From UHGV virus genome UHGV-0147800: a DNA stretch of 19,405 nt; one strand, 5' to 3'. The translations under genes and the position numbers were made by a program. Of this stretch, positions 8,687-16,198 are shown one piece after another. The notes beneath the pieces were generated by a model. It saw only the letters and a list, made by a program, of their open reading frames with translations, was not told the origin of the DNA and made no database searches. The DNA is from a virus. Positions within the stretch are counted from its first letter, which is position 1, and each line of letters opens with the position of its first letter.

Positions 8687-8819
8687 TCTTTGGGACTCCT
8701 GGCTGATTAAGTATGTCGATAAGGCGTTTCCATCCGTCACGTAATTTACGGGTGATTCGTTCAAGTAAAGATTCGGAAGGGCAGCCAGCAACAGGCCACC
8801 CTGCAATGGCATATTGCAT
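8679..8819 (-). CDS. cIII: CIII (FtsH inhibitor stabilising cII)
   Basis: ATG at 8817-8819 with SD AAGGAG. Product MQYAIAGWPVAGCPSESLLERITRKLRDGWKRLIDILNQPGVPKNG matches recalled lambda CIII over its whole length, though 46 aa versus about 54. Confidence 0.85.
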   Translation of the reverse strand: MQYAIAGWPVAGCPSESLLERITRKLRDGWKRLIDILNQPGVPKNG

Positions 8820-8880
8820 GGTGTGCTCCTTATTTATACATAACGAAAAACGCCTCGAGTGAAGCGTTATTGGTATGCAT

Positions 8881-13050: not shown

Positions 13051-13905
13051 ATGACAAATACAGCAAAAATACTCAACTTCTGCAGAGGTAACTTTGCCAA
13101 ACAGGAGCGTAATGTGGCAGATCTCGATGATGGTTACGCCAGACTATCAAATATGCTGCTTGAGGCTTATTCAGGCGCAGATCTGACCAAGCGACAGTTT
13201 AAAGTGCTGCTTGCCATTCTGCGTAAAACCTATGGGTGGAATAAACCAATGGACAGAATCACCGATTCTCAACTTAGCGAGATTACAAAGTTACCCGTCA
13301 AACGGTGCAATGAAGCCAAGTTAGAACTCGTCAGAATGAATATTATCAAGCAGCAAGGCGGCATGTTTGGACCAAACAAAAACATCTCAGAATGGTGCAT
13401 CCCTCAAAACGAGGGAAAATCCCCTAAAACGAGGGATAAAACATCCCTCAAATTGGGGGATTGCTATCCCTCAAAACAGGGGGACACAAAAGACACTATT
13501 ACAAAAGAAAAAAGAAATAATAAAAACACTATGTCCGAAAGTGTCCGGACGGAGTGTGAAAAATCATCTGACCGTCACGAAGAAACCGACAAGGCATTCG
13601 AGGAAATATTCTGGTGTGCAGGCATGCGGAAAGCCGGGAAAAAAAACGCAGCTTCGGCATTCAGAACACAGTTCAGGGAATGGCGTAAAACTACCAGGGG
13701 TACGGCAAGCGAGTTTGCCACGATGCTGGCAGAAGACATCGCATGCAGGAATGGTAAGCAGTTCGGATTCGACAGGTTGTTACCATCGAGCTACCTGAAC
13801 GGTCAGCGCTGGAACGACGAGAAGCCAGAAACTATTCAACCACAATCCAAACCATCATCCGCAATCACCGTATCGAAAACTGGCTACGTGTTTTTCGACA
13901 GGTGA
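13051..13905 (+). CDS. O: Replication initiator O (lambda O family, iteron-binding)
   Basis: 284-aa ORF with lambda O-like N-terminal domain, and the ori iterons lie inside the gene as in lambda. Confidence 0.9.
   Translation: MTNTAKILNFCRGNFAKQERNVADLDDGYARLSNMLLEAYSGADLTKRQFKVLLAILRKTYGWNKPMDRITDSQLSEITKLPVKRCNEAKLELVRMNIIKQQGGMFGPNKNISEWCIPQNEGKSPKTRDKTSLKLGDCYPSKQGDTKDTITKEKRNNKNTMSESVRTECEKSSDRHEETDKAFEEIFWCAGMRKAGKKNAASAFRTQFREWRKTTRGTASEFATMLAEDIACRNGKQFGFDRLLPSSYLNGQRWNDEKPETIQPQSKPSSAITVSKTGYVFFDR
13399..13530. repeat. Replication origin: four iterons plus AT-rich region
   Basis: Four about 19-bp palindromic iterons (ATCCCTCAAAACGAGGGA, TCCCCTAAAACGAGGGA, ATCCCTCAAATTGGGGGA, ATCCCTCAAAACAGGGGGA) at 13399-13485, then an A/T-rich stretch ACAAAAGAAAAAAGAAATAATAAAAACAC. 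Confidence 0.85.
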
Positions 13906-13908
13906 ACC

Positions 13909-14016
13909 ATGAAATCAAAAATCAAATCGTTACTGGTCGCTGGTTATAACCACGGCTGGTTAAGTATTTCGTTTGTCGATTTCTGGTTTAAAAATCTCAA
14001 TCTGAGGGAATCATGA
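13909..14016 (+). CDS. Small ORF (35 aa) between O and the primase-helicase
   Basis: ATG at 13909 preceded by AGGTGA (AGGTGAACC-ATG). Product MKSKIKSLLVAGYNHGWLSISFVDFWFKNLNLRES. Its stop overlaps the primase-helicase start (ATGA). Could instead be non-coding leader. Confidence 0.3.
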   Translation: MKSKIKSLLVAGYNHGWLSISFVDFWFKNLNLRES

Positions 14017-15893
14017 CTCCAAGTGAACTTAGCTACCTGCTTTGGGCGCAGGTTGACAGGGTGGCTCCACACCTGTTGCCAAACGGCAAGAAAGAGGGGC
14101 ATGAGTGGGTTGCCGGTAACGTCAACGGTGACAAGGGAAACAGCCTTAAGGTCAACCTTAGCGGCAAGAAAAAATGGGCTGATTTCGCTGAGGGAGACGG
14201 CGGTGACATGCTTGATTTATGGATGGCATGTCGTGGAATTAACCTGCATCAGGCTATGCAGGAAGCGAAAGCATTTCTCGGTATCAAGGATGACGATCAT
14301 CATTTCGATGCCAGACGTGAGAAGAAATTCTCCAGACCTGATCGCAAGAAAATAGCCCGCTACGTTACCAGAACAGAATCCCATCTTGAGTACCTGCAAT
14401 CGCGTGGCATATCGCCAGAAGTCGTAAAGCGCTACGAGGTTGTCAGCGGCAAGGTGTGGAATGGAGAACGAGAACTTGATGCACTGGTGCTTCCGTACAA
14501 ACGCGATGGTGAGTTGTTGCAGGTCAAGCGAATCAGCACTGAGCGCCCGGACGGGAAGAAAGTCATTATGGCAGAAGGTGATTGCGAACCTTGCCTGTTC
14601 GGATGGCAGGCTCTGGACGCTGGCGTGAGGGCGGTTGTGCTTTGTGAAGGCGAAATTGATTGTATGAGCTATGCGCAATACGGCATCTCGGCGTTATCCG
14701 TGCCGTTTGGTGGCGGGAAAGGCGCTAAGCAACAGTGGATTGAGTTTGAGTATCACAACCTCGACAGGTTTGAGGAAATATTCATCTCGATGGACGTTGA
14801 TGATGTTGGTCGTGAAGCCGCAAGGGAAATCGCAAGCCGACTCGGTGAACATCGTTGCCGTCTTGTTACTCTGCCGTACAAAGACATCAACGAATGCCTG
14901 ATGAACGGTGTTACCGAGGATGAAATCTGGCAGTACATCGGCACGGCATCCTACTTCGATCCTGAAGAACTCTACAGCGCGCGAGAGTTTTACCAGGACA
15001 CTATCAACGCTTTCTACGGCAAGCAGCAGTATCTGTTTAATCCACCGTGGGAATCTCTGGCAGATAAATTCCAGTTCCGTGAGGCAGAGTTGACGCTGGT
15101 CAATGGTGTGAACGGTCACGGAAAAACGGAGGTTGTCGGGCATATGGCACTTGAGGCAATGCGTCAGGGTGTGAAGACGTGCATCGCGTCACTTGAGCTG
15201 AAGCCTGGTATTCTCCTTAAGCGCCTTACCCGTCAGGCGACGTGCTGCAAGATGCCGCCAGTGCTGGAAATTGACTCTGCATTTAAATTTTATGACGAAA
15301 GACTTTGGGTGTTTGGCCTGACCGGAACGGCGAAAGCCGACAGGCTGATCGAAATATTCGACTACGCTCGCCGCCGATACGGGATCCAGTTATTCATCAT
15401 CGACAGCCTGATGAAATGTGGCATAGGCGACGATGACTATAACGGGCAGAAGGCGTTTGTTGACTCGATTTGCGACTTCAAAAACAAAACAAACTCCCAC
15501 GTCATTCTCGTTACTCACTCGCGAAAAGGAGACAGCGAAGAAAAACCAACCGGGAAAATGGACGTAAAAGGCTCTGGAGCGATAACAGACCTGACAGACA
15601 ACCTTTTCATCATCTGGCGTAACAAGGCTCGCGAGAGAGCGTTACAGAGAGTTCAGAGTGGTGAAAAGATGTCAGAGAAGGACGAACAGCTACTGGCGTC
15701 TCCTGCATCTGTTTTGATGCTTGAAAAACAACGTAACGGCGAAGGTTGGGAAGGTGGTGTCCCGTTGTTCCTTGACGAGCAATCGCACCAGTTCCTGCAA
15801 CTTGAATCAGGATCGCCATATAGCTACATCGCCAATATGCCGAAATCGGAATATGACGAGGCGTGGCGACAGGAAAACGTGACGGAGTATTAA
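14013..15893 (+). CDS. Bifunctional DNA primase/helicase (Toprim domain plus DnaB/RecA-like helicase domain)
   Basis: 626-aa ORF with SD GAGGGAA. N-terminal half has Toprim-like acidic motifs (LCEGEIDCMS, ISMDVDDVGRE). C-terminal half has Walker A (NGVNGHGKTE), Walker B-like (LFIIDSL) and an arginine-finger region. Occupies the position of lambda P. Confidence 0.8.
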   Translation: MTPSELSYLLWAQVDRVAPHLLPNGKKEGHEWVAGNVNGDKGNSLKVNLSGKKKWADFAEGDGGDMLDLWMACRGINLHQAMQEAKAFLGIKDDDHHFDARREKKFSRPDRKKIARYVTRTESHLEYLQSRGISPEVVKRYEVVSGKVWNGERELDALVLPYKRDGELLQVKRISTERPDGKKVIMAEGDCEPCLFGWQALDAGVRAVVLCEGEIDCMSYAQYGISALSVPFGGGKGAKQQWIEFEYHNLDRFEEIFISMDVDDVGREAAREIASRLGEHRCRLVTLPYKDINECLMNGVTEDEIWQYIGTASYFDPEELYSAREFYQDTINAFYGKQQYLFNPPWESLADKFQFREAELTLVNGVNGHGKTEVVGHMALEAMRQGVKTCIASLELKPGILLKRLTRQATCCKMPPVLEIDSAFKFYDERLWVFGLTGTAKADRLIEIFDYARRRYGIQLFIIDSLMKCGIGDDDYNGQKAFVDSICDFKNKTNSHVILVTHSRKGDSEEKPTGKMDVKGSGAITDLTDNLFIIWRNKARERALQRVQSGEKMSEKDEQLLASPASVLMLEKQRNGEGWEGGVPLFLDEQSHQFLQLESGSPYSYIANMPKSEYDEAWRQENVTEY

Positions 15894-15922
15894 ATGGCCA
15901 TCTACATCACTGAGCTAATAAC

Positions 15923-15955
15923 AGGCCTGCTGGTAATCGCAGGCCTTTTTATTTG
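15923..15955 (+). terminator. Intrinsic terminator (tR2-equivalent) after the replication genes
   Basis: Perfect 8-bp stem AGGCCTGC-TGGTAATC-GCAGGCCT followed by TTTTTATTT. Confidence 0.65.
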
Positions 15956-15982
15956 GGGGAGAGTAATTGGAGGATTTAAGAA

Positions 15983-16198
15983 ATGAGTACGATAGCTGAG
16001 CTTGTCAGGGCTAATGTTCGTGAAGAGTTGGCGCGTTGGTATCGGTATCGTTCATCGTCCAGTTTGCCGCTTGATGAGTTGTATGAGCATTCACCTGCCG
16101 CACGACGCTATCCGCGTGACCGTGTTCTTCGGCGGTTGTTCAGACTCAACAATGAGTTTCAGCGCAACAGAATAATCCGGAGTCTGGATTTAAAGTGA
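15983..16198 (+). CDS. Hypothetical protein (71 aa), Arg-rich
   Basis: ATG with SD GGAGGA 8 nt upstream. No recognisable motif. Confidence 0.55.
   Translation: MSTIAELVRANVREELARWYRYRSSSSLPLDELYEHSPAARRYPRDRVLRRLFRLNNEFQRNRIIRSLDLK

Follow-up and report, generated by a model that had tools for sequence, protein, structure and literature searches.

The cassette at positions 13,051–15,893 of the window (the whole 19,405-nt stretch of DNA that was analyzed) is very probably an ES18-type replication-initiation module of a lambdoid prophage, adjoining torS in an E. coli chromosome and working by the mechanism proposed below. Its gene order is that of ES18, with an initiator gene, a 35-aa gene, and a 626-aa primase-helicase gene whose stops and starts overlap or abut. 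The analysis establishes directly how the cassette is built, which homologies it has, that O is a recombinant, and, for the small gene, that it is coding and where it occurs. The arrangement itself is already known, having long been annotated in ES18 and many relatives, and is not a discovery; fresh interest is confined to the small 35-aa protein. The three reading frames run exactly as given in the earlier note, which had described a hybrid replication module at this place:

13051..13905, + strand: O-type replication initiator gene, 284 aa, a two-domain recombinant (ORF; Pfam, TIGR01610)
13909..14016, + strand: gene for a 35-aa protein, homolog of ES18 gp60 (phrog_21848), translationally coupled to both neighbors
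14013..15893, + strand: predicted bifunctional primase-helicase gene, 626 aa, T7 gp4/Twinkle type (phrog_239, 3e-171)

Reading of the sequence places AGGTGA at 13900–13905, 3 nt ahead of the small-ORF ATG and including the O stop codon, and GAGGGA at 14004–14009, 3 nt ahead of the ATG of the 626-aa gene. The small frame overlaps the 626-aa gene in an ATGA at 14013–14016, so that its description as an ORF with a good Shine-Dalgarno sequence, coupled to the fusion gene, was accurate. The cassette would be translated as a coupled chain from O through the 35-aa protein to the helicase. None of the three proteins has a Pfam, NCBIfam, or PHROG match to the loader families (lambda P, DnaC), tblastn finds no homolog of lambda P or of the lambda O C-terminal domain in the whole window (best E 0.5), and an Rfam search of the module returned no match.

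The initiator gene and its origin

Pfam places Phage_rep_O (PF04492) at aa 22–115 of O (E 3e-36, score 124.3 against a cut-off of 28.7 bits), TIGR01610 matches at 5e-39, and in BLASTP aa 1–155 match lambda O at 99% identity, all likeness ending at aa 155. DNA alignment with lambda and ES18 puts a recombination junction, from lambda-type to ES18-type sequence, at about 13518. Read from these alignments, O is a recombinant that joins the lambda N-terminal part and origin to an ES18-type C-terminal domain that bears no relation to the lambda O domain which binds P; with P absent as well, the hybrid nature claimed for the module stands. The features concerned are the following:

13051..13517, + strand: lambda-derived segment, coding for the O N-terminal winged-helix (origin-binding) domain and containing the origin repeats (BLASTP against lambda O; DNA alignment with lambda and ES18)
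13400..13483, + strand: four iterons (13400–13416, 13420–13436, 13444–13460, 13467–13483), identical to lambda ITN1-4
about 13486–13535, + strand: A-rich low-GC stretch beside the iterons (GC 0.22–0.30; alignment)
13533..13550, no strand: short palindrome GTCCGAAAGTGTCCGGAC flanking the A-rich stretch (hairpin scan; conserved in ES18)
13516..13905, + strand: O C-terminal domain, aa 156–284, ES18-type (phrog_33384, 8e-89; phrog_270)
13864..13902, + strand: conserved initiator C-terminal tail ITVSKTGYVFFDR, aa 272–284, kept where the rest of the C-terminal domain differs (L015, L024, L029)

The iterons and the A/T-rich stretch lie within the initiator's own gene, as in lambda O and as the earlier note had seen. 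Four iteron matches are observed against a mean of 0.06 in shuffled sequence, and none of 200 shuffles reaches four; they are presumably where the O N-terminal domain binds. Together with most of the A-rich stretch (its first ~32 nt), the iterons are base-for-base identical to ori-lambda. The A-rich stretch, presumed to be the DNA-unwinding element, is itself a mosaic in the alignment, its left ~32 nt being lambda and its right part ES18-type. An oop-like antisense unit, as found in lambda, is also present in the window.

The C-terminal domain of O has no Pfam, NCBIfam, or PDB sequence match, a homolog search with it returned mostly partial, near-identical proteins, and the AF2 model of O is of low confidence (pLDDT 47.5), too poor for a fold search. 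Domain and tail recur upstream of the same helicase behind differing N-terminal domains (Phage_rep_O, HTH_36, and others), and the domain is presumed to be the recruiter of the phage helicase. The conserved tail is a candidate docking peptide; divergence of the last 20 aa of the initiator tracks that of the small ORF and the helicase (rho 0.73), compared with only 0.27 for the rest of the C-terminal domain, though physical adjacency confounds such a signal.

In lambda, the C-terminal domain of O binds P, and P brings host DnaB. Here P is replaced by the 35-aa gene and the phage primase-helicase and the O C-terminal domain is unrelated, so DnaB recruitment through P cannot operate. We propose that the lambda-derived N-terminal domain would bind the four iterons in its own gene, given its 99% identity to lambda O and the identity of the iterons, and that the resulting nucleoprotein complex would, by analogy with lambda, destabilize the adjacent A-rich stretch. 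The ES18-type C-terminal domain with its conserved tail would then recruit the phage hexameric gp4/Twinkle-type primase-helicase, as gene order, co-inheritance, and the lack of a P homolog suggest, and the helicase would unwind the DNA and probably also prime for host DNA polymerase III, an arrangement in which initiation would need neither host DnaB nor DnaC and perhaps not DnaG either. The protein-protein contacts and the independence from host factors are throughout what we infer; no experimental or biochemical study of an ES18-type module was found in the literature searched.

The primase-helicase and host priming

The 626-aa protein is, by homology, a Toprim primase fused to an SF4 helicase, which bears out the fusion that the earlier note had proposed and that had been set beforehand as a test. 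Among solved structures, T7 gp4 and Twinkle come nearest to it in both sequence and fold: the closest PDB sequence matches are 5ikn and 6n7i (T7 gp4, E about 1e-23) and Twinkle 8e2l (6.5e-14), and the top Foldseek matches of the AF2 model (pLDDT 67.8) are again T7 gp4 and Twinkle (E 1e-19 to 1e-14), with whole-chain TM-scores of only about 0.3, presumably owing to a different placement of the domains relative to one another. At only about 25% identity, the protein shares with both the domain order of a zinc-ribbon-like N-terminal domain, Toprim primase, linker, and RecA-type SF4 helicase:

14013..14297, + strand: N-terminal domain, aa 1 to about 95, relative of the DnaG zinc ribbon lacking all four zinc-binding cysteines (TIGR01391; cysteine census)
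14637..14900, + strand: Toprim catalytic core, aa 209–296, with EGEID 212–216, DVDD 261–264, and KDINE 290–294 (Toprim_2, E 3e-12)
15075..15794, + strand: SF4 (DnaB/gp4-like) helicase domain, aa 355–594 (AAA_25/DnaB_C; T7 gp4 alignment)
SF4 motifs, by residue: Walker A 365–372, SLELK 393–397, Walker B 461–466, VTHSRK 500–505, VKGSGAI 518–524

A ring hexamer, 5'-3' unwinding, and primer synthesis are the activities predicted for such a protein. In the helicase half, AAA_25 passes its Pfam threshold and DnaB_C, at 23.8 bits, falls under the cut-off of 27; motifs H1, H1a, H2, H3, and H4 are present, and the alignment with T7 gp4 spans aa 192–539. Opposite the T7 arginine finger R522 the alignment has a lysine, K519, that does not vary across the family; R504 or K515 may stand in for the finger. 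The Toprim metal-binding residues E212, E214, D216, D261, D263, and D291 are invariant in 32 relatives, as are the SF4 motifs.

The N-terminal domain is matched by TIGR01391 (dnaG) at aa 26–143 and weakly by Zn_ribbon_DnaG at aa 26–92 (E 0.13). No cysteine stands at the four aligned zinc-ribbon positions, and there is one unrelated cysteine in the first 110 aa. The four cysteines are likewise missing from relatives down to about 40% identity, CxxC...CxxC being kept only in relatives at about 32% identity (L081, L083). T7 gp4 needs its zinc-ribbon domain for template-directed priming, and the loss of the ribbon here makes primase activity uncertain; animal Twinkle also lacks the zinc-binding cysteines. 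The protein could thus be a helicase only, its Toprim half no longer priming, as in animal Twinkle, and serving in structure or in binding the initiator, so that replication would be independent of DnaB and still need host DnaG. The missing cysteines and the poor zinc-ribbon score speak for such a loss, the invariant Toprim metal-binding residues and the strong conservation of the cysteine-less N-terminal domain itself argue for a kept function, and on balance we consider the loss of priming unlikely. Independence from host DnaB is a reasonable inference; independence from DnaG is less sure, because all four primase zinc-ribbon cysteines are missing.

The 35-residue protein

The 35-aa ORF is a real gene under purifying selection, and the expectation that its frame would be conserved in related modules was confirmed. 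The frame is open in all 27 distinct sequences from such modules, whose remaining forward frames are interrupted by stops in 26 and 27 cases. No sequence down to 42% identity departs from 35 codons, the median dN/dS is 0.23, and variation by codon position (29.8/19.4/44.0) is highest at the third. The protein matches phrog_21848 over aa 1–34 of 35 (E 4.4e-26) and is 94–97% identical to ES18 gp60, depending on alignment length. That the frame is a coupling spacer or chance ORF with a functionless peptide is extremely unlikely and is largely refuted by these data; its great shortness, its lack of annotation by the NCBI pipeline in Sf101 and E. coli genomes, and the double use of its last codons as the helicase ribosome-binding site would all suit a spacer, but neither the open frame nor its codon-position bias would.

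Searches of Pfam, PHROG, NCBIfam, and phmmer gave no homolog of assigned function. Against 1.84 billion representatives, phmmer returned five matches. One is a 131-aa protein that joins the initiator C-terminal end to the small ORF, probably from a frameshifted Arsenophonus-type prophage; two others are repeat proteins with a GWxDxxKVDFWL motif in common, and we regard both as chance matches. The gene is confined to Enterobacterales and absent from all distant modules examined, and an HMM of 21 small proteins, run against the six-frame translations of all 86 loci, found no fused copy outside the Enterobacterales clade. Five close relatives also lack it (L019, L033, L021, L023, L025), L019 and L033 by what appears to be clean loss. 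The 35-aa protein cannot, on account of these absences, be an obligatory loader, and the gene looks accessory.

As a conserved accessory factor that goes with this lineage of helicases, the 35-aa protein would, as our best guess, be a small adaptor in helicase loading or a modulator of that step. It might instead act outside the loading machinery, on the host or in regulation, for instance by inhibiting or redirecting a host replication protein or by tuning helicase activity or abundance. The dispensability of the gene in nature (distant modules never had it) and the lack of a homolog with assigned function would fit such a role, which we hold to be somewhat improbable. An invariable place with the initiator on one side and the helicase on the other, coupling to each of them, and divergence in step with the helicase (rho 0.73–0.76, a signal confounded by physical adjacency) are more typical of a physical partner. 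Very unlikely, too, is that the whole cassette is a dead remnant in a decaying prophage. It does sit in a chromosomal prophage, and some endosymbiont relatives have decayed (a stop in L038, a frameshift in L075), but here nothing is broken in the three reading frames, the two ribosome-binding sites, or the four iterons, and the module is 89–98% identical to those of plaque-forming phages such as ES18, Sf101, and mEp043.

Within the preferred reading of a loading adaptor or modulator, a more specific version is a doubtful one: that the 35-aa protein is a minimal adaptor bridging the initiator tail (ITVSKSGYVFFDR-type) to the cysteine-less N-terminal domain of the gp4-like primase-helicase, a miniature functional counterpart of lambda P or SPP1 G39P. 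Were it true, it would define the loading of T7/Twinkle-type ring helicases at initiator-bound origins in temperate phages. In P22 (genes 18/12) and the Bacillus phage SPP1 (G38P-G39P-G40P), an origin-binding initiator is paired with a phage replicative helicase, and in SPP1 a small loader gene lies between the two, in the same position as the 35-aa gene here. The P22 and SPP1 helicases are DnaB-type without a fused primase, and G39P is about 126 aa long; the likeness of G39P to the 35-aa protein would be one of gene position.

Relatives and distribution

ES18 genes 59-60-61 have the same order, sizes, and overlaps as the window module. In the GenBank annotation, from which we took the ES18 features, gp59 is an O-like initiator whose gene contains a feature marked 'similar to lambda ori', gp60 has 35 aa, and gp61, with 626 aa, is called a 'putative primase/helicase similar to T7 gene 4'. 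The literature lists the ES18-type arrangement as a third type of lambdoid replication module (PMC10307801). The same cassette is present in epsilon34, g341c, Sf101, mEp043, and many enterobacterial prophages. At the DNA level the module is 89.6% identical to ES18 and 98% identical to Sf101 over the shared part. Compared with the ES18 group, the first ~18 aa of O differ, the O N-terminal domain and origin being closer to lambda itself, and the 3' half of the helicase gene is only about 75% identical to ES18. In its DNA the small ORF matches ES18 at 98%, above the module-wide 89.6%. We considered and rejected a conservation signal peculiar to the ORF at the DNA level: the high-identity zone runs from about 13730 to 14280 and is followed by a steady fall along the helicase gene, as for a mosaic block and not a local signal.

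Compared with T7 gp4 and Twinkle, the window protein stands in a temperate, origin- and initiator-dependent setting, with no phage DNA polymerase in the window. The cassette would offer a compact natural system for studying the delivery of a T7/Twinkle-type primase-helicase to an origin with bound initiator, and its exact lambda origin and O N-terminal domain would allow the developed lambda in vitro tools to be reused.

The module type is widespread in the prophages of enteric bacteria and has relatives in Shiga-toxin phages. Stx2a_F403, Min27, and phi24B carry the same helicase lineage, the same 35-aa gene (71% aa identity), and the same initiator C-terminal end, in a replication region classed as 'Eru5' (PMC8951638). 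The initiator N-terminal domain of these Eru5 phages is HTH_36, in contrast to Phage_rep_O in the window, and the Min27 helicase gene has a Hint+LAGLIDADG intein in the Walker A loop, whereas the window gene has no intein. The authors of the Eru surveys argue that the stability of lysogeny, and with it the output of toxin, is influenced by the replication region. The Stx-phage survey states that nothing is known about the replication proteins of 'Eru' phages (PMC8951638). Scans with the helicase family gave 2,353 protein clusters at E <= 1e-20. At least 80% of the module stretch is found in 130 of 5,426 complete E. coli genomes, and the exact junction between lambda origin and ES18-type C-terminal domain in only two of the 5,426.

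The initiator gene and its origin

The three reading frames that the earlier note had proposed for the replication cassette, namely O (13051-13905, 284 aa), a 35-aa gene (13909-14016) and a primase-helicase gene (14013-15893, 626 aa), were borne out at exactly these coordinates. As claimed for a lambda-like initiator and origin, residues 1-155 of O share 99% identity with lambda O, beyond which the similarity ends. The four predicted in-gene iterons are present at 13400-13483 (shuffled sequence gives a mean of 0.06 matches and never four), followed by the anticipated AT-rich region, a 50-nt A-rich stretch with a GC content of 0.22-0.30. Aligned with lambda and ES18, the window DNA equals lambda across the four iterons and as far as ~32 nt into the A-rich stretch, and from about 13518 it follows ES18 and no longer lambda, thus placing the crossover within the linker that joins the two O domains; by this alignment, O is a recombinant initiator. 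ES18 has the same architecture, with an O N-domain 95% identical, and the exact lambda-origin/ES18-C junction, which only 2 of 5,426 complete E. coli genomes have, is the only locally unusual point.

The C-terminal domain of O (aa 156-284) matches phrog_33384 and phrog_270, and has no relatives by sequence in Pfam, NCBIfam or the PDB. With a pLDDT of 47.5, the AF2 model of O is of low quality and does no more than suggest a disordered linker followed by a small helical C-domain. Within Enterobacterales, the ES18-type C-domain is common to initiators with different N-domains; at three related loci (L015, L024 and L029), the last ~13-20 initiator residues (ITVSKSGYVFFDR-like) are kept despite a different remainder of the C-domain.

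A primase-helicase in place of P

No homologue of lambda P or of the lambda O C-domain is encoded anywhere in the window, in accordance with the claim that P has been replaced. The proposed Toprim/DnaB-like fusion is recovered by Pfam as Toprim_2 (3e-12) plus AAA_25/DnaB_C, and by PHROGs as phrog_239, "DNA primase/helicase" (3e-171). Sequence comparison with proteins of known structure puts T7 gp4 (E about 1e-23, aa 192-539) and Twinkle first; a fold search with the AF2 model (moderate confidence, pLDDT 67.8) also ranks these two at the top (E 1e-19 to 1e-14), followed by the DnaG primase 2au3. The protein has the acidic residues of Toprim and motifs H1-H4 of the helicase, all of them invariant among 32 relatives of 69-95% identity.

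The N-domain (aa 1-95; 14013-14297) is recognisably related to the DnaG/gp4 zinc ribbon and strongly conserved in family members of about 40% identity or more, a range over which none of the four zinc-ribbon cysteines is found; the cysteines (CxxC...CxxC) are kept only by the ~32%-identity relatives L081 and L083. In addition, the arginine finger R522 of T7 gp4 aligns with an invariant lysine, K519 (15567-15569), whereas K467 of gp4 aligns with the invariant R504 (15522-15524), an apparent swap of two basic residues in the alignment. Replication may therefore fairly be taken to be independent of host DnaB and, less securely, of host DnaG. At its C-terminus the protein has a conserved acidic tail whose last residue is aromatic (15840-15890, ...SEYDEAWRQENVTEY), a feature not conserved in distant relatives. 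This tail resembles the acidic ones through which T7 gp4 and SSB bind polymerases and which end in Phe.

The window carries the intein-free allele of the helicase gene. In the "P" protein of Min27 and the Cronobacter relative P0012, a ~341-aa Hint plus LAGLIDADG intein interrupts the Walker A loop directly after GHGK (equivalent to 15123-15128, K371/T372, in the window), explaining the odd annotation of Min27 as an 860-aa "P" plus a 111-aa "DNA primase".

L002 2368-4947: Min27 intein-bearing helicase gene

The 35-aa gene and coupling of the cassette

The 35-aa gene is a real protein-coding gene. It corresponds to ES18 gp60 (annotated "function unknown"), its product matches phrog_21848 (4e-26), and it is left unannotated by NCBI's pipeline. 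When 79 loci encoding helicase relatives were fetched, the small gene was found in 29, all with a helicase at least 53% identical, from Enterobacteriaceae, Erwiniaceae, Morganellaceae and others. The frame proved conserved, always with 35 codons and with amino acid identity down to 42%; it lies constantly a few bases past, or overlapping, the initiator stop, and at its other end it either overlaps the start of the helicase gene or lies directly against it. Among 27 distinct sequences, none has this frame interrupted, while stops break the other two forward frames in 26 and 27 of them, respectively; variation by codon position is 29.8/19.4/44.0, highest at the third, and the median pairwise dN/dS is 0.23. 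Homology searches with the protein returned no relative that would assign a function.

The small gene is not universal, being absent from five close relatives (L019, L033, L021, L023 and L025). The last three have other sequence in its place, and in the first two, from Xenorhabdus and Providencia, an apparent clean deletion leaves initiator and helicase adjacent:

L019, about 2979-3000: apparent small-gene deletion
L033, about 2990-3001: apparent small-gene deletion

The L033 deletion may have occurred between two short CTGAGG repeats, which flank the small gene in the Providencia relative L058. In every more distant module examined (Vibrio phage 1.239.O, Legionella, alphaproteobacteria and others), the initiator gene runs up to or into the helicase gene, and no small-gene homologue lies between them. 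Initiators of distant helicase relatives without the small gene (L007, L039-L078) have a conserved tail of another kind (...LMAGVI, ...WAGVL or ...SEGAI), which directly abuts the helicase start and may be an alternative docking motif.

Both the good Shine-Dalgarno sequence (AGGTGA, 13900-13905) and the ATGA overlap (14013-14016) described in the earlier note are present. The small-gene ribosome-binding site contains the O stop codon, and that of the helicase (GAGGGA, 14004-14009) is carried within the last codons of the small gene; translation is therefore coupled along all three genes.

The initiators that precede members of this helicase family have at least five different N-terminal domains (Phage_rep_O, HTH_36, DnaD_N, DUF1376 and Lin1244_N). 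In pairwise comparisons, the small protein diverges in step with the helicase (rho 0.73-0.76) and with the last 20 residues of the initiator (rho 0.73), and follows the rest of the C-domain poorly (rho 0.27). This suggests, as a lead only because physical adjacency could yield the same pattern, that the tail is co-inherited with the small gene and the helicase as one unit and is a candidate docking element.

From the observed anatomy and homologies of the cassette, we infer all contacts between its parts, as well as its independence from host factors. O would bind the iterons and open the A-rich stretch in lambda fashion; its non-lambda C-domain and tail would recruit the phage primase-helicase in place of P-DnaB, and the 35-aa protein would assist or modulate this recruitment. 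Because the window encodes no DNA polymerase gene, synthesis would fall to host DNA polymerase III.

Known relatives and genomic setting

The hybrid-module interpretation as a whole is supported, and the cassette is already known: in the ES18 record, gp59 carries the feature "similar to lambda ori" and is followed by gp60 and by gp61, a "putative primase/helicase; similar to phage T7 gene 4", and epsilon34, g341c, Oslo, Sf101, mEp043 and others carry the same module. In a survey of Salmonella typing phages published in 2023, it is described as a third lambdoid type of replication module, in which a "nonhomologous primase-helicase" replaces the DnaB-like helicase (PMC10307801). In Stx phages, an HTH_36-initiator variant is classed as "Eru5", in a study stating that the working of Eru replication proteins is not known at all (PMC8951638). 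The remaining interest lies in the conserved 35-aa protein and in gp4/Twinkle-type helicase loading at an initiator-bound origin.

The window is E. coli chromosome, its left end lying inside torS (50-2794, minus strand) and continuing into a lambdoid prophage with the gene order integrase, recombination genes, kil, cIII, N, cI, cro, cII, replication genes, nin region. The closest complete genome, E. coli E10, is 99.3% identical across the full 3.5-kb stretch around the cassette. Neighbouring elements are:

8774-8832, minus strand: Lambda_thermo (Rfam; cIII thermoregulator element), 88.5 bits
12964-13076, minus strand: oop-like antisense unit
15894-15986: 30-aa hydrophobic ORF starting at the helicase stop (TAAATG), homologous to Sf101/P22 NinA

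Apart from Lambda_thermo, the window gave no Rfam match. The antisense unit has the pO-oop-tO layout of lambda, with a minus-strand promoter (TTGAGT-17-CATAAT with upstream TG, 13076-13048) at the 5' end of O and a strong minus-strand terminator (12994-12964) overlapping the 3' end of cII. Inside the NinA-like ORF, a terminator-like hairpin at 15923-15946 (AGGCCTGC...GCAGGCCT, then TTTTATTT) is possibly a tR2-like terminator ending the replication operon. In some otherwise near-identical E. coli prophages, including that of AR_0017 (L005 3919-4530), an HNH endonuclease gene or an IS element is inserted just 3' of the helicase gene.
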